Positions 3,170 through 14,166 of a stretch of 64,000 nucleotides of DNA are shown piece after piece. The DNA is taken from contig NZ_AZUN01000001.1 of assembly GCF_000527095.1 (NCBI RefSeq), forward strand, positions 934,772 through 998,771, given 5' to 3'. How positions within the stretch are numbered: the first letter of the stretch is position 1; every line of letters starts with the position of its first letter. Source of the stretch: Methylomicrobium lacus LW14 (lineage in GTDB: Bacteria; Pseudomonadota; Gammaproteobacteria; Methylococcales; Methylomonadaceae). The notes below the pieces were generated by a model. It saw only the letters and a program-made list of their open reading frames with translations. It did not search any database and was not told the DNA's origin. Position numbers and translations under genes: made by a program.

Positions 3170-5179
<2,010 letters not shown>

Positions 5180-5239: not shown

Positions 5240-5885
5240 TTAGACCTTAAGAACCACCATCGAAACATCGTCGACAAAGGTGTGGCTGCCGGAAAAGGTT
5301 TGCAGATCCTTCACGATCGCGTTGATGATCTCTTGCGGCGCCTTCGGGCCTTGGGTGGAGAAGAGCCGGGTCAGGCGTTCGGTGCCGAAAAACTCGCCTT
5401 CCGGGTTCTGCGCCTCGGTGATGCCGTCGGTGTAGAGCAGCACCAGGTCGCCGGGCCGCAAAACGGTGCTTTTTTCTTCGAATACGATTTCCTTGGTGAC
5501 TCCGAAGATGATGCCTTCGGCATCTAGTTCATTGCAAACCGTTTCGCCGGCCGGCAACAGCAGCGGGCGGTTATGTCCCGCATTGGCGTAGCTCAGTTGC
5601 CGTGTGGCGGGGTTGTATTTCATGTAGAACATCGTGATGAAAAGCTCGGCCTTGTTCAGGTCGTCATAGAGCAGGGCGTTCAGCACGCGCAGCATGTCGC
5701 CGGTTCCGGCCTCCTTTTCCAGCTTTCCCGACTCGGGGTGGATATGCAGGGTGCGCAAGGCTTCGCAAGGCTTCGGCTTTTAGTGTGCTGCCCTGCGCAA
5801 AAGGCTTCACCAACGCACGGTCGCCCGAAACGGCCTCGCCGGATAATATCCGTTCGGCAATGCCGTATTCTATCAGTGAACCCAT
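5240..5885 (-). pseudogene. Small PP2C/SpoIIE-family serine phosphatase (RsbX/RsbU-like), disrupted by a 10-bp tandem duplication
   Basis: Two overlapping minus-strand ORFs (5240..5758 and 5664..5960) lie in frames offset by +1. Deleting one copy of gcaaggcttc fuses them into a ~212-aa PP2C protein (AERILSGEAVSGD...GDLVLLYTDGITEA). The gene begins directly after the RsbT-like stop. Confidence 0.7.
5755..5774. repeat. Perfect tandem duplication of the 10-mer gcaaggcttc (2 copies)
   Basis: Read directly at 5755-5764 and 5765-5774. It causes the +1 frameshift in the phosphatase gene. Confidence 0.9.
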
Positions 5886-6274
5886 TTGGTTGCCTTGATA
5901 GTCGTGCCCTGGCCGACGCAGGAGGTGATCTCGAACTCGTCCATCAGCCGCTTGGCGCACGGCAGTCCCAGGCCCAACCCTTTTCCGGTCGAGTAGCCGT
6001 CCAGCATCGCGCGTTCGATATCGGCGATGCCAGGGCCACTGTCGCGGGCGCCGATCACAAGGCCTCGAAGCTCTCCTTGCTTGATTTGACTCAAGATGAT
6101 TTCTCCCTGCTGGGCATATTCGACGATATTGCGCGCCAACTCGGAGAGGGCGGTTGCGATCAAGGTCAGGTCGCTGGCAGAAAATCCCAATTCCTTTGCT
6201 AACGCGCGCGCCTGTTGGCGGACCATCACGATGTCGGAGTCGGAGCGGATCGCTATTTGGACGACGTCAGTCAC
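5873..6274 (-). CDS. RsbT-like anti-sigma regulatory factor (Ser/Thr kinase, HATPase_c)
   Basis: The product begins VTDVVQIAIRSDSDIV and carries GHKL ATPase motifs (ELARNIVEYA, DSGPGI, GKGLGLGL). GTG start at 6274 overlaps the upstream STAS gene stop by 8 nt. Confidence 0.75.
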   Translation of the reverse strand: MTDVVQIAIRSDSDIVMVRQQARALAKELGFSASDLTLIATALSELARNIVEYAQQGEIILSQIKQGELRGLVIGARDSGPGIADIERAMLDGYSTGKGLGLGLPCAKRLMDEFEITSCVGQGTTIKATKWVH

Positions 6275-6644
6275 GGCACATCCCCTCCTGCCGTTGACGG
6301 TCCAGGATCGCGAGGGCTTCTTCCAGGTCCAGCGTGGTTTGTACGCCAGACAGCCGTACGTCCAGACCCAACTGCACCATCGCAAACGCGATTTCGGGTC
6401 GAATGCCGACGATGATCGTTTCGGCGCCGCGCAAGCGGATCGCCTGGGCCATGTTGCGCAAGGTTCGCGTCGCGAAGGAATCCATCACATCAAGCAAGGT
6501 TACGTCCAGAATGACGCCACGCGAACGAAATCGTCCAACCTGTTCCACCAAGACCTCTTGAAGCTCCAGCAAATCCGTATCCGACTGTTCGGCCTGAAGG
6601 GAGGCGATCAGATAAGGTCCCTGTTTTAGAATGGGCGTTTTCAT
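6267..6644 (-). CDS. RsbS-like STAS-domain protein (anti-sigma factor antagonist)
   Basis: A 125-aa STAS fold (ILDVTLLDVMDSFATRTL). Its ATG overlaps the upstream gene stop as ATGA. Confidence 0.75.
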   Translation of the reverse strand: MKTPILKQGPYLIASLQAEQSDTDLLELQEVLVEQVGRFRSRGVILDVTLLDVMDSFATRTLRNMAQAIRLRGAETIIVGIRPEIAFAMVQLGLDVRLSGVQTTLDLEEALAILDRQRQEGMCRD

Positions 6645-7612
6645 ACATCAGCTTGATTGGAATGCATCCTTTCAGCGACAGGAACCAGCCGATAGCCGAG
6701 CAATCGTTCCGCCACCTCCAGGCCGCTTTGCAGGTCTACCGTGGTCTTGACATGGCCCAGGTCCACGCCGATAGCGACCAGCGCTTGCGCGATTTGCGGC
6801 GACAAGCCGGTCAGGATCACGGTCGCCCCCATCAACCGGGCTGCGCTGACCGTTTGCAGCAGATGGTTGGCCACTTTGGAATCGACAAGCGGAACGCCGG
6901 TAATATCCACGATCGCGATCTTGGCGCGGGTCGCGCTGATGCTTTCCAGCAACTGCTCGGTCAACTGGTGGGCGCGATACGATTCGAGCGCGCCGACGAC
7001 CGGCAATATCAATAGGCGCTCGCGGACCTGCAGCACCGGAGTCGGAAGCTCGCGCATGGCGACCTGCTGTTTGCCTATCAGCTGTTCCCGGCAGTTGATG
7101 TAGGTGTCGATCGCGAGGCCGATGTCCAGAAAAGCCACTTTCAACAACGAGATAAATGTCCTGAGCGCTTTTCCCGGTTCGCTTTTGTACGCATCGAAAA
7201 GGTGATCGGCGACGGTTCTTAAATAGAAATTGTACATCCCCAGGTAAGCTTTGACCGGCAGGCCGATGCGCTCGTGCACCGCGCCGATTTTAAGGCGGTC
7301 TTCGATATATGCCTTGTCGTAATTGCCTTGATTCAGCCTGGAAAAATAAATCTTCTGGGCGCGTTTGACGCGATCGAGGAGTTCGGGGGACTGAAAAAAT
7401 ACCCGGGTTTCCTCGAAGGCGAGCAGATGTTTGTAAAAAGCCTCGATGACCGGGTCCGCGTAGGCCTGAGCGACTGGATCGATGCTCACCAGCTCCCGGG
7501 TATCCTCATCGCCTAATTCCAGAAACGCTCTGCGCTTGTCGATTTCCTTTTCGGTTATGCCGATTTCCTCCATGAGCGACTTTTTTGAATCCTGATGCGT
7601 GGGTTCGGTCAT
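6641..7612 (-). CDS. RsbR-like stressosome sensor: N-terminal globin-coupled sensor domain + C-terminal STAS
   Basis: The N-terminus (MEEIGITEKEIDKRRAFLELGDEDTRELVSIDPVAQAYADPVIEAFYKHLL) is protoglobin/HemAT-like and the C-terminus is STAS (LLILPVVGALESYRAHQLTE...AIVDITGV). Start chosen at ATG 7612, which has a GGAGGA site upstream. Confidence 0.7.
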   Translation of the reverse strand: MTEPTHQDSKKSLMEEIGITEKEIDKRRAFLELGDEDTRELVSIDPVAQAYADPVIEAFYKHLLAFEETRVFFQSPELLDRVKRAQKIYFSRLNQGNYDKAYIEDRLKIGAVHERIGLPVKAYLGMYNFYLRTVADHLFDAYKSEPGKALRTFISLLKVAFLDIGLAIDTYINCREQLIGKQQVAMRELPTPVLQVRERLLILPVVGALESYRAHQLTEQLLESISATRAKIAIVDITGVPLVDSKVANHLLQTVSAARLMGATVILTGLSPQIAQALVAIGVDLGHVKTTVDLQSGLEVAERLLGYRLVPVAERMHSNQADV

Positions 7613-7786
7613 TTGGGTTTCCTCCGGCTCTTGATGCAAACCTTGGGCTTGCATAAGGGCAATGATGGGAAGGACGCTTATCATCCTGTAATTAAGAATG
7701 TTATGATGAGTCTGGGTTCCCTGATCCTGCTGGTCACTCTGACCGATCCGCAAAATTATCATGACCGATTGCACCGAGTTAAACCG

Positions 7787-8716
7787 ATGAGAATAGTCGT
7801 TGCGTTGGGTGGAAATGCGCTACTGCGCCGAGGCGAAGCGCTGACATCAGAAAATCAGCGCCGCAATATTCAAATTGCCGCCGCCGCGTTGGCGCCATTG
7901 GCTAGCGATCATCAGATCATCATCACGCACGGCAATGGCCCTCAGGTCGGGCTGTTGGCATTGCAAAGCGCGGCCTATAAGTCTGACGAAAGCTATCCCT
8001 TGGATATTCTCGACGCCGAAACCGAAGGCATGATCGGTTATCTGATCGAGCAGGAATTGGGTAATTATTTGCCGCCAGAACGGCTCTGTGCAACCTTGCT
8101 AACGCAAATCGAAGTGGACCCGCACGATCCGGCTTTTGATTCACCCACCAAGCCGATCGGCCCCGTTTACTCCAAAACCGTCGCGGAACAACTCGCTAAT
8201 CAACACCGCTGGCGCATCGCGAAGGATGGCGAATATTATCGGCGCGTGGTGCCGTCGCCCAGGCCGCGAAGGATCGTAGAGATCGAGGTGATTAAGTCAC
8301 TGATCATACGTAATGTGGTGGTGATTTGTGCGGGAGGCGGCGGCATTCCGGTTGTGAAAGACGTAGATGGCCACTGGCGCGGCGTTGAAGCGGTGATCGA
8401 CAAGGATCTGGCCGGGGCTCTGCTGGCGATCGAGTTAGGCGCCGACCATTTCATGATGCTGACCGATGTCGATGCGGTGTACCAGAATTGGGGAATGCCA
8501 GAAGCCCGCGCGGTTCGCTGCATATCGCCCGGAGCGATTCGGGAAATGGCCTTTGCCGAAGGCTCGATGGCTCCGAAAATGCTGGCCGCTTGCGAATTTG
8601 TCGAGAAAACCGGCCGCATTGCCGGCATCGGACAGCTCAAGGATGTGGCCGATATTCTCGCGGGAACCGCCGGCACGACGATCGCGCCGGATGCGGATAT
8701 CGGCTGGTGGGATTGA
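7787..8716 (+). CDS. arcC: Carbamate kinase
   Basis: MRIVVALGGNALL at the N-terminus, an amino-acid kinase fold, and C-terminal GTxI motifs. The long ORF starts at 7595 but the homologous start is 7787. Confidence 0.85.
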   Translation: MRIVVALGGNALLRRGEALTSENQRRNIQIAAAALAPLASDHQIIITHGNGPQVGLLALQSAAYKSDESYPLDILDAETEGMIGYLIEQELGNYLPPERLCATLLTQIEVDPHDPAFDSPTKPIGPVYSKTVAEQLANQHRWRIAKDGEYYRRVVPSPRPRRIVEIEVIKSLIIRNVVVICAGGGGIPVVKDVDGHWRGVEAVIDKDLAGALLAIELGADHFMMLTDVDAVYQNWGMPEARAVRCISPGAIREMAFAEGSMAPKMLAACEFVEKTGRIAGIGQLKDVADILAGTAGTTIAPDADIGWWD

Positions 8717-8737
8717 TCAGAGGGTTTCCTTGCGCGT

Positions 8738-10087
8738 TCAATCCGAAAGCAAATTCTGCTCTTGCAGAAATGCTTCCACCAGCCCGCTCAACAACGGCTT
8801 GCCGATTTCGGCGAATTCGTAACTCGCGCGCACGACCGGCTTGTTGATCTCTATCAGTGCGCCAAGGTCGCACGGCGTCGCGGTCACGACCACATCGGCC
8901 TCGGCCGAATTGATCGTCTCTTGCAAGGCGCGGAGTTGTGCCGGATGATAGCCGACAGCCGGCAGCACCTTGCCGATATGCGGATAGTGGCGGTAAACTT
9001 CGGCGATCTCGCCTGCCGCAAAATCGCGCGGATCGACAATCTCCGCCGCCTCGGCTTCCAATGCTGCAACATAGCCCGCGCCATAGGCCATGTCGCCATG
9101 TGTGACGGTCGGGCCGTCCTCGACCACGAGCACGCGTTTGCCGCGCACCCGCTCGGGATCGGACAGTTGCACGATGGATGCGCCGCGCACGACCTGTGCG
9201 CAGGGATTCGTTTGCCGCACGCTGTCTTCCACGCGCTGCACATCGGCTGGCGCGGCCGAATTGACCTTGCCGATCAGGACGATGTCGGCCATCCTAAGAA
9301 CCGTCTCGCCCGGATGATGCGAGGTTTCGTGGCCCGGCCGCAACGGATCGACCAATACGATGTTCAGATCGGGACGGATGAACGAAAAATCGTTGTTGCC
9401 GCCGTCCCAGACAATGATGTCGGCTTCCCGTTCGGCGCGCGCGACGATCTTGGCATAATCGATGCCTGCAAACACCACATTGCCGATCGCCAGATGCGGT
9501 TCGTATTCCTCGCGTTCCTCGACCGTGCAGCCGGCCGCATCCAGATCGGCGTTCGCAGCGAAACGCTGCACGGCCTGTTTTTCCAGATCGCCGTAAGGCA
9601 TCGGATGCCGGATCACCGCGACTTTCAGGCCGTGCGCCTTCAACAGTTTGGACAGCCAGCGCGCCGTTTGCGATTTGCCGCAGCCGGTGCGCACAGCGCA
9701 GCAGGCGATCACCGGTACGGAAGCCTGGAGCATCGTTCGCTTCGGACCCAGCAGGATGAAATCGGCGCCTTGGGCGAGTGCGATCGAAGCCGTGTGCATC
9801 ACCCGGCTATGCGGCACGTCGCTGTACGAGAAAATGGCCTGGTCGATACACTGCGTTTGGCACAAGGCGGCGAGCTCCGCTTCGTCGACGATAGGGATGC
9901 CCTCGGGATAAAGCTGTCCTGCCAGTGAGGCCGGATAGCGGCGGCCCGCGATGTCCGGAATCTGCGCGGCGGTGAAGGCGACGACTTCGCTGTCCTGATC
10001 GTCCCGATACACGACATTGAAATTATGAAAATCGCGCCCGGCGGCGCCCATGATCACGACTTTGGTGCGTTGTTTCGTAACGGACAT
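8738..10087 (-). CDS. P-loop protein resembling cyclic 2,3-diphosphoglycerate synthetase / predicted GTPase family
   Basis: A 449-aa ORF with an N-terminal Rossmann-like KVVIMGAAGRDFHNFN and a central P-loop GCGKSQ. The family assignment is from memory only. Confidence 0.35.
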   Translation of the reverse strand: MSVTKQRTKVVIMGAAGRDFHNFNVVYRDDQDSEVVAFTAAQIPDIAGRRYPASLAGQLYPEGIPIVDEAELAALCQTQCIDQAIFSYSDVPHSRVMHTASIALAQGADFILLGPKRTMLQASVPVIACCAVRTGCGKSQTARWLSKLLKAHGLKVAVIRHPMPYGDLEKQAVQRFAANADLDAAGCTVEEREEYEPHLAIGNVVFAGIDYAKIVARAEREADIIVWDGGNNDFSFIRPDLNIVLVDPLRPGHETSHHPGETVLRMADIVLIGKVNSAAPADVQRVEDSVRQTNPCAQVVRGASIVQLSDPERVRGKRVLVVEDGPTVTHGDMAYGAGYVAALEAEAAEIVDPRDFAAGEIAEVYRHYPHIGKVLPAVGYHPAQLRALQETINSAEADVVVTATPCDLGALIEINKPVVRASYEFAEIGKPLLSGLVEAFLQEQNLLSD

Positions 10088-11201: not shown

Positions 11202-11799
11202 GATTGCCTTTGTCGTATGAAATGAAAGGATAATATAACCTGAGTTCGGTTTAAGCGTTTACGACAAAAGTCAGTAAATCAGTGTTCCTCAAATTAAGCG
11301 CAGGCTTTTTTTCTTGGTACGAGTAAGCGACTAAGCACGCCACGATATTCGCCAAGTAATAACCATAAAACCAGCCAGTCTCAACATATCGTCCCAATGT
11401 GGTGTGATTTTCTTCAAACTGAGATGATACATTGATAGAGAATTGAGTAGACATTCTCTGGTCTACCCAGGATAGCCGGTTGCGCTTGAGCGCCGTTACG
11501 TCTCCACGAATCAGTAGTTCTAGTTTTCGCATGAGCGAACTGGTCCAAACTAAGATTCATTTTTTTCAACCTGGACATTAGCCTAAAGTCCAATAGTGCG
11601 ATCTGCATGCTCTGGAATATAGTGACACTCTGGAAAATGGAATAGAATCGTTGCAGAACAATGATGGATGGCCCCCCTAAAAATAACAAAACCCCTTAAT
11701 TGAGCCAAAAAACGTAACAGCGGAATTGAATTGTGTCGAGTTCTAGATGACAGTAACTGAGCCGCGGCTTGGGAATTTTCTTAACCATACGGAAGAACA

Positions 11800-14166
11800 A
11801 TGAAAAAAAATCTTATCGTGATTGTCACTTTAATGACTTTGTTTTTGGTCACTTTCGAAGTCTCCGCAGCCAAAAACGAAGCCAAGCAAAAGGAAGGCAT
11901 CGATCGGACCGTATTGCCGATTGCGGAACCCGAAACCAGACCGATTTCCGAACTCGATGTTCGCAACGCCAAAGCGCCCCCGCGTTTCGAAGTGAAGGCG
12001 CCGAAGGGTGCGCCGAATGTGCTGCTGGTGCTGCTCGACGACCTGGGCTTTGCCGGTACCAGCACTTTCGGCGGACCGGTGAACACCCCCTCCTTCGAGC
12101 AAATTGCCAACGAGGGTTTGCGTTATAACAACTTTCACACCAACGCACTTTGTTCGCCGACCCGCGCCGCCATCAAGAGTGGTCGTAACCACCATGTCAA
12201 CAACATGGGCGGCATCATCGAGATGGGTACTCAGTTTCCCGGCAACACCGGCCAGATTCCCAACAGCGTCGCACCGGTCGCCGAAATGTTGCGCCTCAAC
12301 GGTTATGCGACCGCGGCATTCGGTAAATGGCATGAAACGGCCGCCTGGGAAGCCAGCATGGCGGGGCCGTTTGATCGCTGGCCGACCCGGCAGGGCTTCG
12401 ACAAGTTTTACGGATTTCTGGGCGGCGAAACCAACCAGTGGGCACCGTTCATCTATGACGGCACCAAGCAGGTCGAATTGCCAAACAACCCCAACTACCA
12501 TTTCATGACCGACATGACCGATCAGGCCGTATCCTGGATCAAGTATCAAAAGGCCCTGACGCCCGACAGACCGTTTTTTACCTATTTCGCGCCAGGTGCC
12601 GTGCATGCGCCGCATCACGTGCCCAAGGACTGGATAGCGGGCTGGCAGGGTAAGTTCGATCAGGGTTGGGACAAACTGCGCGAGGAAATTTTGGCTCGGC
12701 AAATCCAACGTGGCGTAGTGCCAGCGGGCACCCAGCTGGCGCCTAGACCGGAGGCGATTCCAGCCTGGGATACGCTGTCGGCCGACGAAAAACGCTTGTA
12801 TGCGCGGCAGATGGAGGTATTTGCCGGTTTTATCGATATGACCGACCATGAAATCGGCCGGTTGATCAAGGCCATCGAAGACATTGGCCAACTCGATAAC
12901 ACCCTGGTGCTGTTCGTCTACGGTGACAACGGTACCAGCGCCGAAGGCGGTCGCAACGGCATGTTCAACGAATACACCTACTTCAATGGGGTTCCGGAAC
13001 AGGTCGCCGACATGCTCAAGCATCTGGATCAGTGGGGCGGACCGGAAACCTATCCGCACATGGCCGCTGGCTGGGCCGTGGCGCTGGATACGCCGTATCA
13101 ATGGACCAAACAGGTGGCATCCGATCACGGCGGCACCAAGGTCGGCATGGCGGTACGCTGGCCGAAAGGCATCAAGGCCAAGGGCGAGCAACGCACGCAA
13201 TTTCACCATGTCATCGACATCGCACCAACCATTCTGGAAGCCGCCGGCCTGCCGGAGCCTAAAATAGTCAACGGCGTCAAACAGCGGCCGATAGATGGTG
13301 TCAGCATGCTTTACAGCTTCGACGATGCCAAAGCCAAAGAGCGCCATACCACCCAGTACTTCGAGATCATGGGAAACCGGGCCATCTATCATGAAGGTTG
13401 GTTTGCCCGCACCATACACCGGGCACCCTGGGAGAAACAAGTACGCCGTCCGTTGGCGGACGATATTTGGGAGTTGTACGACACCCGCACTGACTTTAGC
13501 CTGACACACGATCTGGCGGCGCAGAATCCCAAGAAACTCACGGAACTGCAAGCCTTGTTCTTGAAAGAGGCCAAGAAAAACAACGTGCTGCCGATCGACG
13601 ATCGGACTCTTGAACGCATCAATGCGGATCTGGTGAATCGTCCCGACTTGATGGCGGGCCGCACCTCGCTGACCCTGGCCGAAGGCATGACCGGCATGAG
13701 CGAAAACGTGTTCATCAACGTCAAGAACAAGTCCAAAACCATCACCGCCGAGCTGGATATTCCGGAGGGTGGCGCCAATGGCGTGGTGCTGGCTCAAGGA
13801 GGCCGTTTTGGCGGCTGGTGCTTGTATCTGAAGGACGGTAAACCGGCTTACACCTATAACTATCTCAATCAGAACCAATACACCATCAGTTCAGCGGAAG
13901 CCTTGCCGAAAGGCAAAAGCAAACTGGTATTCGAGTTCGCCTACGATGGTGGTGGCTTGGGTAAGGGCGGTAACGGCACCTTGTCCGTCGATGGCCGCAA
14001 ACTGGCCGAAGGCCGTATCGATAAAACCCAGCCGATGGCCTTCTCCGCCGACGAAACCGCGGATGTGGGCATCGATGACGCCACGCCGGTGGTAGCCGGA
14101 ATCGGCCTGGGCGCTCAGACCCGCTTTACCGGCAAGATAGAGAAAGTGACGATCGAGGTGAAATAA
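11800..14166 (+). CDS. Arylsulfatase (formylglycine-dependent sulfatase family), secreted
   Basis: A signal peptide, then the sulfatase signature LCSPTRAAIKSGRNHH (C-x-P-x-R), LLVLLDDLGF and GKWH. A larger C-terminal domain is typical of long arylsulfatases. Confidence 0.85.
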   Translation: MKKNLIVIVTLMTLFLVTFEVSAAKNEAKQKEGIDRTVLPIAEPETRPISELDVRNAKAPPRFEVKAPKGAPNVLLVLLDDLGFAGTSTFGGPVNTPSFEQIANEGLRYNNFHTNALCSPTRAAIKSGRNHHVNNMGGIIEMGTQFPGNTGQIPNSVAPVAEMLRLNGYATAAFGKWHETAAWEASMAGPFDRWPTRQGFDKFYGFLGGETNQWAPFIYDGTKQVELPNNPNYHFMTDMTDQAVSWIKYQKALTPDRPFFTYFAPGAVHAPHHVPKDWIAGWQGKFDQGWDKLREEILARQIQRGVVPAGTQLAPRPEAIPAWDTLSADEKRLYARQMEVFAGFIDMTDHEIGRLIKAIEDIGQLDNTLVLFVYGDNGTSAEGGRNGMFNEYTYFNGVPEQVADMLKHLDQWGGPETYPHMAAGWAVALDTPYQWTKQVASDHGGTKVGMAVRWPKGIKAKGEQRTQFHHVIDIAPTILEAAGLPEPKIVNGVKQRPIDGVSMLYSFDDAKAKERHTTQYFEIMGNRAIYHEGWFARTIHRAPWEKQVRRPLADDIWELYDTRTDFSLTHDLAAQNPKKLTELQALFLKEAKKNNVLPIDDRTLERINADLVNRPDLMAGRTSLTLAEGMTGMSENVFINVKNKSKTITAELDIPEGGANGVVLAQGGRFGGWCLYLKDGKPAYTYNYLNQNQYTISSAEALPKGKSKLVFEFAYDGGGLGKGGNGTLSVDGRKLAEGRIDKTQPMAFSADETADVGIDDATPVVAGIGLGAQTRFTGKIEKVTIEVK

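Follow-up and report, generated by a model that had tools for sequence, protein, structure and literature searches.

A globin-coupled stressosome module in Methylomicrobium lacus is very probably degenerate, its phosphatase genes lost by a deletion of about 1.6 kb

Does Methylomicrobium lacus carry a complete oxygen-sensing stressosome? The locus that raises this question lies in a window of 64,000 nucleotides, the whole stretch of DNA that we analyzed, and it would otherwise pass for a compact oxygen-sensing stressosome of four genes, PP2C included; RefSeq annotates a PP2C phosphatase there. Four open reading frames follow one another on the minus strand, and Pfam HMMs run on them give domain matches far beyond chance. 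The original prediction of an RsbR-RsbS-RsbT module of the stressosome type is borne out by the Protoglobin, STAS and HATPase_c_2 matches, and by the best PDB match, which is the RsbR of Vibrio vulnificus. It is at the fourth reading frame that our reading departs from it. The locus is very probably a degenerate globin-coupled stressosome module, in which a deletion of ~1.6 kb has destroyed the phosphatase genes. We class it as an ordinary, decaying representative of an already known stressosome family, and the intact form has been described before in Methylomicrobium. The value of the analysis is mainly corrective.

The first gene, rsbR (6641..7612, minus strand), encodes a globin-coupled RsbR of 323 aa, with an N-terminal sensor globin (Protoglobin, 2e-35) and a C-terminal STAS domain (1.6e-13). 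The PF11563 match runs over residues 21-173 and profile positions 2-154 of 158, in keeping with a sensor-globin fold. In the alignment with HemAT, the proximal histidine that a haem sensor calls for is kept: His113 (F8) aligns with HemAT His123, and Tyr60 (B10) with HemAT Tyr70, which are reportedly the proximal and the distal residue of HemAT (Zhang & Phillips 2003). The same residue roles are given by Jia et al. 2016 (PMC4976288). From the conserved Tyr60 and His113 we predict a haem-type sensor; the Y/H pair is found in 38 of 62 RsbR homologues. In the STAS half, Thr238 lies in the DITG motif (VDITGVP), is invariant (62/62 homologues) and is the counterpart of BsRsbRA Thr171, the conserved phospho-acceptor position. 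The second site, equivalent to BsRsbR Thr205 and VvRsbR Thr233, is Ala277 here, and the homologues have T (27), A (25) or S (10). Against the PDB, the best match is chain 7o0i_B of the V. vulnificus stressosome (E = 2.5e-44 over residues 46-308), and the Vibrio-type likeness that had been proposed is real to that extent; the STAS half aligns with the RsbR structures of both Listeria and Vibrio. The ATG and the GGAGG ribosome-binding site of rsbR are kept in 8/8 relatives. No record matched the 323-aa RsbR exactly.

The second gene, rsbS (6267..6644, minus strand), encodes a single-STAS scaffold protein of 125 aa (STAS, 1.3e-10). The phospho-site motif Asp55-Ser56-Phe57 is present, each residue being conserved in at least 90% of 75 homologues, and we take Ser56 to be the counterpart of BsRsbS Ser59. 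An exact look-up with RsbS found the identical protein on metagenome contigs, with the same gene order. The third gene, rsbT (5873..6274, minus strand, GTG start), encodes a GHKL-type serine/threonine switch kinase of 133 aa (HATPase_c_2, 4.9e-13), full length and collinear with B. subtilis RsbT. Its sole departure from the consensus shared by at least 90% of 75 aligned homologues, B. subtilis RsbT among them, is position 106 in the GLGLGLPG box, a Cys here and a Gly in 74/75. NCBIfam gave sub-threshold matches only (YtvA_fam, SpoIIAB, RsbW). The start of rsbS overlaps the stop of rsbR (ATGA, 6644..6641) and rsbT overlaps rsbS by 8 nt (GTGACTGA). The overlaps, taken in the original prediction as signs of translational coupling, are real at these two junctions and at a third, where a frame derived from rsbX opens within the end of rsbT; the PP2C reading frame has no such overlap.

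The fourth reading frame (5758..5240, minus strand, 172 aa) is WP_024297360.1, which RefSeq names PP2C family phosphatase. It matches SpoIIE with an E-value of 1.4e-39, covering only positions 36-191 of the 192-position profile, and it has a TTG start 115 nt past the rsbT stop, in a different frame and without a ribosome-binding site. Because the profile is covered in part and the start is distant and in another frame, this reading frame is incomplete as a gene and not translationally coupled to rsbT. The C-terminal metal-binding motifs of a PP2C domain, TDG and DD, are present as YTDGITE and VDDVSMV (D150/G151 and D202/D203 in the numbering of the chimera described below), and these positions vary little or not at all among 70 homologues; the GD of motif I and the DxxGHG of motif II are absent. 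What does overlap rsbT, by 13 nt, is an ATG at 5885 that opens a short rsbX-derived frame. This stub (codons 1-32, MGSLIEYGIAERILSGEAVSGDRALVKPFAQG; 5790..5885, minus strand) matches the N-terminal end of the 206-aa RsbX in the relatives L001, L002, L003, L005 and L089, and it is all that is left of an RsbX that has 205-206 aa in relatives.

The relatives show where the two pieces come from. In L001, L002, L003, L005 and L007 (RsbR identity 74-84%), the stub frame matches right after rsbT and the 172-aa frame matches ~1.6 kb further on. L001 shares the flanking genes of the window, carbamate kinase upstream and uvrB/aspC downstream, and after its rsbT come a 206-aa SpoIIE-type RsbX and then a 538-aa protein with RsbU_N, PAS and SpoIIE domains. 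This output phosphatase has 537-538 aa in the nearest relatives, and the remnant in M. lacus (residues 359-537; 5240..5789, minus strand) shares 86% identity with residues 363-537 of the L001 protein. With the chimera as query in a word-indexed protein search, no intact allele exceeded 76% identity. L089 came from a scan of metagenomes for the segment of the L001 protein that is deleted in M. lacus; it has 94.5% DNA identity to the window and both phosphatase genes intact, and it gives the breakpoints to the base. The original prediction had left the output partner missing and had suggested a survey of the genomic neighborhood in related genomes; that survey places an RsbU_N-PAS-PP2C gene exactly at the site of the deletion. 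The same site is where the partner belongs in the family at large, because the gene after rsbT/rsbX carries RsbU_N in 55 of 64 related loci; in nearly every case the partner is RsbU_N-tagged and comes right behind rsbX, and rsbX itself, a small single-domain PP2C of 200-225 aa, directly follows rsbT in 53 of 75 related loci. It had been correctly stated that no sigma-B or GGDEF gene adjoins the operon. M. lacus has no obvious output at this locus because the output gene is deleted. A second STAS, RsbT-like, RsbX-like or SpoIIE gene was not found in the 64-kb window either.

The deletion junction lies at 5789..5792 (minus strand), with 1,595 bp missing relative to L089 and L001 and a 2-nt GC microhomology at 5791..5790. 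In L089 the left breakpoint reads ...CAGGGC|GTG and the right one ...ACACGC|AGCACA; the window reads ...CAGGGCAGCACA, and blastn aligns window positions 7387..5790 to positions 1..1598 of L089. The reading frame is kept across the fusion, from rsbX codon 32 to output-gene codon 359, and the lost span goes from rsbX codon 33 to output codon 358. With residues 1-358 of the output protein went the RsbU_N and PAS domains, together with the motifs GGDYFD and DVSGH (PP2C motifs I and II), which are the consensus in 70 homologues and lie in a segment that aligns with the PP2C domains of Rv1364c and RssB. An in-frame fusion regains only the SGD of RsbX, not a DxxGHG. At 15 nt beyond the junction there is a 10-bp tandem duplication (GAAGCCTTGC twice; 5755..5775, minus strand) that shifts the frame, and the rsbX-derived frame then reaches a stop at 5664, for a product of 73 aa.

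How are the two mutations distributed? The deletion is found in 8/8 metagenome contigs with 98-99.8% identity to the window. The window, L082, L083, L084, L086, L087 and L088 have the extra 10 bp; L081, L085, L089 and L001 lack them. The gene called on the deletion-bearing contigs has 211 aa in two of them (an in-frame chimera, with no duplication) and 172 aa in the other six; a protein database lists proteins of both lengths, from dozens of contigs. The G106C change of RsbT, a SNP at 5959, is common to the duplication-bearing contigs, and L081 and L085 keep the Gly. We considered phase variation by the 10-bp repeat but rejected it: duplicated and unduplicated alleles lie on different SNP haplotypes, which suggests one mutational event.

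We propose the following history. The ancestral layout would have been rsbR-rsbS-rsbT-rsbX followed by the RsbU_N-PAS-PP2C output gene. The intact form of the nearest relatives would function as in Vibrio and Bacillus: haem-RsbR and RsbS would build a core that holds the kinase RsbT; free RsbT would activate the PAS-PP2C phosphatase by docking on its RsbU_N domain; the activated phosphatase would act on a phospho-STAS substrate encoded at an unlinked site; and RsbX would strip the phosphate from RsbR and RsbS, which resets the system. In Methylomicrobium (Methylosarcina) lacus, a single 1,595-bp microhomology-mediated deletion would have brought codon 32 of rsbX into one reading frame with codon 359 of the output gene. 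Very little would have been left of RsbX, and the output PP2C would have lost the domain on which RsbT docks, its PAS domain and its first two metal-binding motifs. The 10-bp tandem duplication would have come later and broken the fused frame. The sequence shows that the genes for sensor, scaffold and kinase are full length and that neither RsbX nor the output PP2C can be made. The module appears to be decaying, and neither reset nor signaling by the normal route would be possible any longer. The 'small PP2C phosphatase' put forward as a functional fourth gene is best read as what is left, at the 3' end, of a 537-aa RsbU_N-PAS-PP2C gene, fused to rsbX codons 1-32 and frameshifted; the 172-aa frame would be a remnant and not a phosphatase because the deletion removed the rest of the output gene and the duplication broke the frame.

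The closest published counterparts are of four kinds. In Vibrio (V. brasiliensis RsbR/S/T, Jia et al. 2016, PMC4976288; V. vulnificus, Heinz et al. 2022, PMC9237108, PDB 7o0i), the oxygen-sensing stressosome has, as in M. lacus, a globin-STAS RsbR of the haem-sensor type with proximal His and distal Tyr kept, followed in the same order by overlapping genes for RsbS and RsbT. Unlike M. lacus, it keeps rsbX, and its downstream module is of the two-component/c-di-GMP type; in the M. lacus lineage the downstream module is RsbU_N-PAS-PP2C, and in M. lacus itself both the output gene and rsbX are destroyed. A globin-coupled rsbRSTX with a PP2C-type downstream module is listed for Methylomicrobium by Heinz et al. 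2022 (PMC9237108, Fig. 3). This published module is the intact form seen in L001, L002, L003, L005 and L089; the M. lacus locus is orthologous to it and has the same neighboring genes, but the published form retains the 1,595 bp and lacks the frameshifting 10-bp duplication.

The sigma-B stressosome of Bacillus subtilis and Listeria (RsbRA-RsbS-RsbT-RsbU-RsbV-RsbW-SigB-RsbX) shares with M. lacus the STAS core, the RsbT kinase with its motifs (N-box SELARNI, DxGPGI, GLGxGLPG) and the logic of an RsbT-to-RsbU_N partner, and Listeria RsbR (7b0u) matches the STAS half of M. lacus RsbR at 4e-27. On the other hand, Bacillus RsbR has a non-haem globin, neither M. lacus nor its relatives have an adjacent rsbV, rsbW or sigB, and in the proteobacterial modules rsbX comes directly after rsbT, which is not the Bacillus/Listeria order. 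The globin-coupled sensors HemAT-Bs (1OR4), AfGcHK (5OHE) and GsGCS (2W31) align with the M. lacus sensor globin over ~150 residues (E ~1e-11 to 1e-12), with the motifs FY (B10) and HxRIGL (F8) in common; their output is an MCP, histidine kinase or transmembrane domain, whereas that of M. lacus RsbR is a stressosome-building STAS domain. A ~1.8 MDa pseudo-icosahedral RsbR:RsbS core sequestering RsbT is predicted for M. lacus only through homology to 7o0i, 7b0u and 6qcm.

Could the three full-length genes still do something? RsbR, RsbS and RsbT might remain a working oxygen sensor that signals through an RsbU_N protein encoded elsewhere, or by direct phosphorylation, with another PP2C in place of RsbX. 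The three genes are intact and under purifying selection over most of the deletion-bearing clade (dN/dS ~0.15), and many downstream partners lack RsbU_N and are possibly phosphorylated directly by RsbT (Heinz et al. 2022, PMC9237108). But no alternative partner lies in the window, which covers only 64 kb of the genome, RsbT has the G106C change at a nearly invariant glycine, the reading frame of rsbR is already lost in one strain (L085, which has a +1 frameshift in rsbR, and SGD>SGG), and the dN/dS of rsbRST is raised to 0.50 on the window branch vs. 0.12-0.16 on the other branches (p = 0.07). We consider a re-routed sensor unlikely. The purifying selection on full-length rsbR, rsbS and rsbT over most of this clade is unexpected for a long-useless module, and as an observation it counts against decay.

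A second possibility is that selection has retained the remnant, either as the 211-aa RsbX(1-32)::PP2C(359-537) chimera or as the C-terminal half-PP2C alone, in a non-catalytic role such as a pseudo-phosphatase that binds a phospho-STAS partner. If true, this would explain why the two deletion-bearing haplotypes differ in the PP2C remnant by 12 synonymous changes and 1 non-synonymous one (binomial 4e-7 to 3e-5 against neutrality), and the deletion would have created a new small protein. Just 1 of 179 C-terminal positions varies among seven protein alleles, and AF2 gives pLDDT >90 for residues 60-211 of the chimera. This confident part is the C-terminal two-thirds of the PP2C fold, with the N-terminal 50 residues unplaced, and the confidence mirrors an alignment of intact homologues rather than the stability of a half domain. 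Nor can the synonymous excess be taken at face value: we down-weight it because the junction sits in a 217-bp SNP-free island with ~4% divergence on both flanks (P 0.02 to 1e-4) and because L085 is a visible recombinant of the two haplotypes, such that the old differences may predate the deletion or come from intact alleles. The commonest allele is frameshifted. For the rsbX stub we used protein-level variants and not dN/dS; the private changes in its 32 codons (S3L, I13T and the one-codon deletion delta-L14) are solely non-synonymous or indel, and its pLDDT is 37-64. Retention of the remnant by selection thus looks distinctly improbable.

Much the same evidence bears on the complete four-gene operon, in which the small PP2C, as a feedback phosphatase of the RsbX type or as the output, would be coupled to RsbT in translation. 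The very strong SpoIIE match, the RefSeq name and the small single-domain RsbX of the 53 related loci all speak for it. The partial profile cover without GD and DxxGHG, the TTG start in another frame, the true rsbX start that persists as a 32-codon stub, and the orthology of the frame to the C-terminus of the 537-aa output gene, with no detectable match to RsbX, all speak against it; the comparison with L089 and L001 refutes it, and we give it hardly any credence. Finally, mis-assembly can yield short tandem duplications, but nothing specific points to a sequencing or assembly artefact, and there is next to no chance of one, because all eight near-identical contigs, from independent JGI and Logan assemblies, carry the deletion along with the window and six of them carry the duplication, always on the same SNP haplotype.

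As a degenerate module, the locus would be a natural knockout of two phosphatases at once, the one for reset (rsbX) and the one for output, and a functional oxygen-sensing stressosome should not be assumed where M. lacus is used as a model. Within the same samples, closely related Methylomicrobium strains differ in having the intact (L089) or the deleted allele, which is a natural experiment; comparing them could test what the haem stressosome does physiologically for methanotrophs that live at oxic-anoxic interfaces.

As for the surroundings, neither the Rfam nor the tRNA scan of the whole window gave a hit, and the scan for promoters and terminators found no terminator after the PP2C remnant. 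The region upstream of rsbR (7613..7786, minus strand) is shared with the divergent carbamate kinase gene and holds the GGAGG ribosome-binding site (7625..7621); a consensus scan finds one weak sigma-70-like match in it, at 7782..7755, as a candidate promoter only.

Four consecutive minus-strand open reading frames lie between uvrB (3170..5179, plus strand) and a carbamate-kinase-like gene (about 7787..8716, plus strand). They are rsbR (7612..6641, 323 aa; Pfam Protoglobin 2e-35 over residues 21-173, and STAS 1.6e-13), rsbS (6644..6267, 125 aa; STAS 1.3e-10), rsbT (6274..5873, 133 aa, GTG start; HATPase_c_2 4.9e-13), and a 172-aa ORF with a TTG start (5758..5240) that matches Pfam SpoIIE (1.4e-39) at profile positions 36-191 of 192 only. 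NCBIfam reports only sub-threshold matches for the four, of the expected kind (a YtvA-family STAS half, SpoIIAB and RsbW). The minus-strand order globin-STAS, STAS and HATPase kinase in the original prediction is borne out by these ORFs and their Pfam matches, and the RsbR/RsbS/RsbT module it proposed stands; the small PP2C phosphatase that it placed fourth does not. The system is of a known kind, already described in intact form for the genus; the copy in the window is broken. What is new is only the break itself, a precise natural deletion that fuses rsbX to the output phosphatase gene, and its annotation as a PP2C phosphatase.

The overlapping junctions that had been proposed as a sign of translational coupling hold for the first three genes. 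The rsbR stop and the rsbS start share an ATGA, the rsbS and rsbT genes have 8 nt in common (GTGACTGA), and the rsbR start codon and its GGAGG ribosome-binding site are kept in eight relatives. They do not hold for the 172-aa ORF, which begins 115 nt past rsbT and has no ribosome-binding site. Instead, a different frame (MGSLIEYGIAERILSGEAVSGDRALVKPFAQGSTLKAEALRS..., stop at 5664) opens with the ATG at 5885 and overlaps the end of rsbT by 13 nt, stop codon included, and this mismatch of frames is the first hint that the fourth "gene" had been misread. Scans of the whole window (1-64000) report no tRNA genes or Rfam families at threshold.

By sequence comparison, RsbR, RsbS and RsbT appear to be the canonical stressosome sensor, scaffold and kinase. 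The best solved relative of RsbR is the Vibrio vulnificus stressosome RsbR (7o0i_B, E=2.5e-44, residues 46-308), followed by Listeria and Bacillus RsbR and RsbS chains, and its globin half alone resembles the globin-coupled sensors AfGcHK, GsGCS and HemAT (about 1e-11 to 1e-12). The proximal His that the original prediction singled out for checking is present: His113 (GAVHERIGLP) aligns with HemAT His123, as does the distal Tyr60 (EAFYKHL) with HemAT Tyr70. This distal Tyr and proximal His are the criterion that divides haem-type from non-haem RsbR proteins (Jia et al. 2016, PMC4976288). Thr238 (VDITGVP), which corresponds to Thr171 of B. subtilis RsbRA, does not vary among 62 homologues; the second site (Thr205 equivalent) is Ala277, where homologues have T (27), A (25) or S (10). 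RsbS retains the Asp-Ser-Phe phospho-site motif, and RsbT aligns collinearly with its B. subtilis counterpart. The sole departure of RsbT from the >=90% consensus is Cys106 (GLGLGLPG), a Gly in 74/75 homologues including B. subtilis RsbT. The change (window 5959) falls in the ATP-lid box.

As a side observation, 21 of the 62 full-length globin-RsbR homologues have Phe at distal B10 and Tyr at proximal F8, not Tyr/His. They belong to a more distant set (40-48% identity; L040-L061, with RsbR matches near 8001-8900 in each locus) from Bradyrhizobium, Paludibacterium, Polyangiaceae, Caulobacterales and alphaproteobacterial MAGs, and the co-variation of these two residues is suggestive of a subfamily that is non-haem or Tyr-ligated.

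The nature of the fourth ORF emerges from comparison with intact relatives. An RsbR-query scan of species-representative genomes gave 80 loci, the closest from Methylomicrobium and other Methylococcales (74-84% identity). In five of these (L001, L002, L003, L005 and L007), the short frame opened at 5885 has its match directly 3' of rsbT, and that of the 172-aa ORF lies about 1.6 kb farther downstream. L001 shares the flanks of the window (carbamate kinase upstream, uvrB and an aminotransferase downstream), and after rsbT it encodes a 206-aa SpoIIE-type protein, RsbX (Pfam 3e-13), and a 538-aa output protein that combines a sub-cutoff Pfam match to RsbU_N (2e-4) with a coiled coil, PAS (6e-27) and SpoIIE (9e-47). 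By blastn, window 6000..5791 corresponds to L001 9613..9822, and 5764..5242 to 11434..11956. A metagenome scan using the part of the L001 protein absent from the window retrieved L089, whose DNA is 94.5% identical to that of the window across rsbR-rsbT and uvrB and in which rsbX (206 aa) and a 537-aa output gene are both intact. Against L089, the left breakpoint falls between CAGGGC and GTG and the right one between ACACGC and AGCACA, and the window reads ...CAGGGCAGCACA, a deletion of 1,595 bp with a 2-nt GC microhomology at 5791..5790. Across the junction the reading frame is kept, passing from codon 32 of rsbX to codon 359 of the output gene. The deletion removes residues 33-206 of RsbX, including the DGLGHG motif, and from the output gene it removes RsbU_N, PAS and the first part of PP2C with GGDYFD and DVSGH, which are consensus in 70 homologues and align with the Rv1364c and RssB PP2C domains. 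In PPM phosphatases such motifs provide Asp ligands to the binuclear metal centre. In addition, GAAGCCTTGC occurs twice in the window (5774..5755), 15 nt past the junction, and once in L089, L001 and two close metagenome contigs (L081 and L085); this duplication shifts the frame and so creates the separate 172-aa ORF. On these alignments, ORF 5758..5240 reads as the 3' deletion remnant of the output gene, and its RefSeq entry (WP_024297360.1, 'PP2C family protein-serine/threonine phosphatase') as a mis-annotated fragment that would be better labelled a pseudogene or remnant. Between uvrB and its PP2C gene, L089 also has two minus-strand genes (L089:3769-6028) that are in neither the window nor L001; by eye, one encodes a 175-aa protein with a signal-peptide-like N-terminal hydrophobic stretch, the other a 552-aa amidohydrolase/adenine-deaminase-like protein.

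The output partner that the original prediction had proposed seeking in related genomes does turn up there. A gene of 200-225 aa, with the size and position of rsbX, comes next after rsbT in 53/75 related loci, and RsbU_N is found in 55 of the 64 genes that come after rsbX or rsbT, fused to HisKA/HATPase_c (41-42), GGDEF/EAL (11) or SpoIIE (6). This modular picture is already published: eleven downstream architectures are described for globin-coupled rsbRSTX modules, with Methylomicrobium a named example of PP2C-type output (Heinz et al. 2022, PMC9237108). Our literature search found no paper on a stressosome in M. lacus. RsbT of V. brasiliensis stays at basal activity when RsbR is in the Fe(II)-O2 state and is active when the Fe(II) form is unliganded (Jia et al. 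2016, PMC4976288). By homology, in the intact ancestor RsbT would be sequestered by haem-RsbR and RsbS; upon deoxygenation it would become active, phosphorylate RsbS Ser56 and RsbR Thr238, and be released to bind the RsbU_N of the PAS-PP2C protein, activating it toward an unlinked phospho-STAS substrate, and RsbX would reset the core. The window retains rsbR, rsbS and rsbT at full length, and its reading frames allow neither phosphatase to be made. Core dephosphorylation would then not be possible without RsbX, and RsbT would have no adjacent target without the RsbU_N-PP2C protein. The main uncertainty is that another partner or reset phosphatase may be encoded elsewhere in the genome; within the 64 kb in view, tblastn (E<=0.1) reports no second STAS, RsbT-like, RsbX-like or SpoIIE gene. 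From those 64 kb, we infer that the module is non-functional or orphaned and gathering further lesions.

Both lesions, the deletion and the duplication, are real and polymorphic. An exact RsbS look-up gave eight metagenome contigs, from JGI and Logan, that match the window at 98.0-99.8% identity and have its gene order. The deletion is in all eight, and the duplication with its 172-aa gene call in six; L081 and L085, without it, encode an in-frame 211-aa chimera of the rsbX stub and the remnant. In L085, rsbR is further disrupted by a +1 insertion (window 7189, L085:3044) that parts globin from STAS, leaving a 184-aa STAS-only gene call, and the stub has an SGD-to-SGG change; this is an independent decay of the same operon.

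Could the remnant still be under selection? Between the two deletion-bearing haplotypes it shows 12 synonymous differences and 1 non-synonymous, a ratio far from neutral (4e-7 to 3e-5). In its protein cluster (two 172-aa, four 211-aa and one 210-aa form) only N115K varies among the 179 PP2C-derived residues, versus S3L, I13T, delta-L14 and D22G among the 32 from rsbX (Fisher p=0.002). However, the junction lies within a 217-bp SNP-free stretch with flanks about 4% diverged (P 0.02 to 1e-4), L085 is a hybrid with a left flank from one haplotype and a right flank from the second, and neighbouring genes switch between dS=0 and dS=0.10, which together point to frequent recombination at the locus and weaken the inference of selection. 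Most likely, the old differences in the remnant predate the deletion or were brought in from intact alleles. In the stub, every recent private change is either non-synonymous or an indel. An AF2 model of the 211-aa chimera has pLDDT >90 for residues 60-211 and 37-64 for residues 1-50, and gives no support to the stub completing the PP2C fold. The rsbR/rsbS/rsbT genes show a dN/dS of 0.50 on the window branch (6 N : 4 S), against 0.12-0.16 on the stem, L089 and L081 branches (Fisher p=0.07), which weakly suggests relaxed constraint in the lineage bearing the frameshift and RsbT G106C.

G106C is common to the duplication-bearing contigs and is not found in L081, L085 or L089. The duplication shares a single SNP haplotype with G106C, and alleles that lack the duplication belong to a different one; the duplication is thus a single event, and this separation rules out a phase switch. 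At 7787-10087, the carbamate-kinase-like gene is identical in the window and L081 (dS=0), and the adjacent gene for a 449-aa P-loop protein (8738..10087; weak LpxK/CobW matches) has dS=0.10 and dN/dS 0.13-0.26, an abrupt mosaic that points to frequent recombination among these strains.
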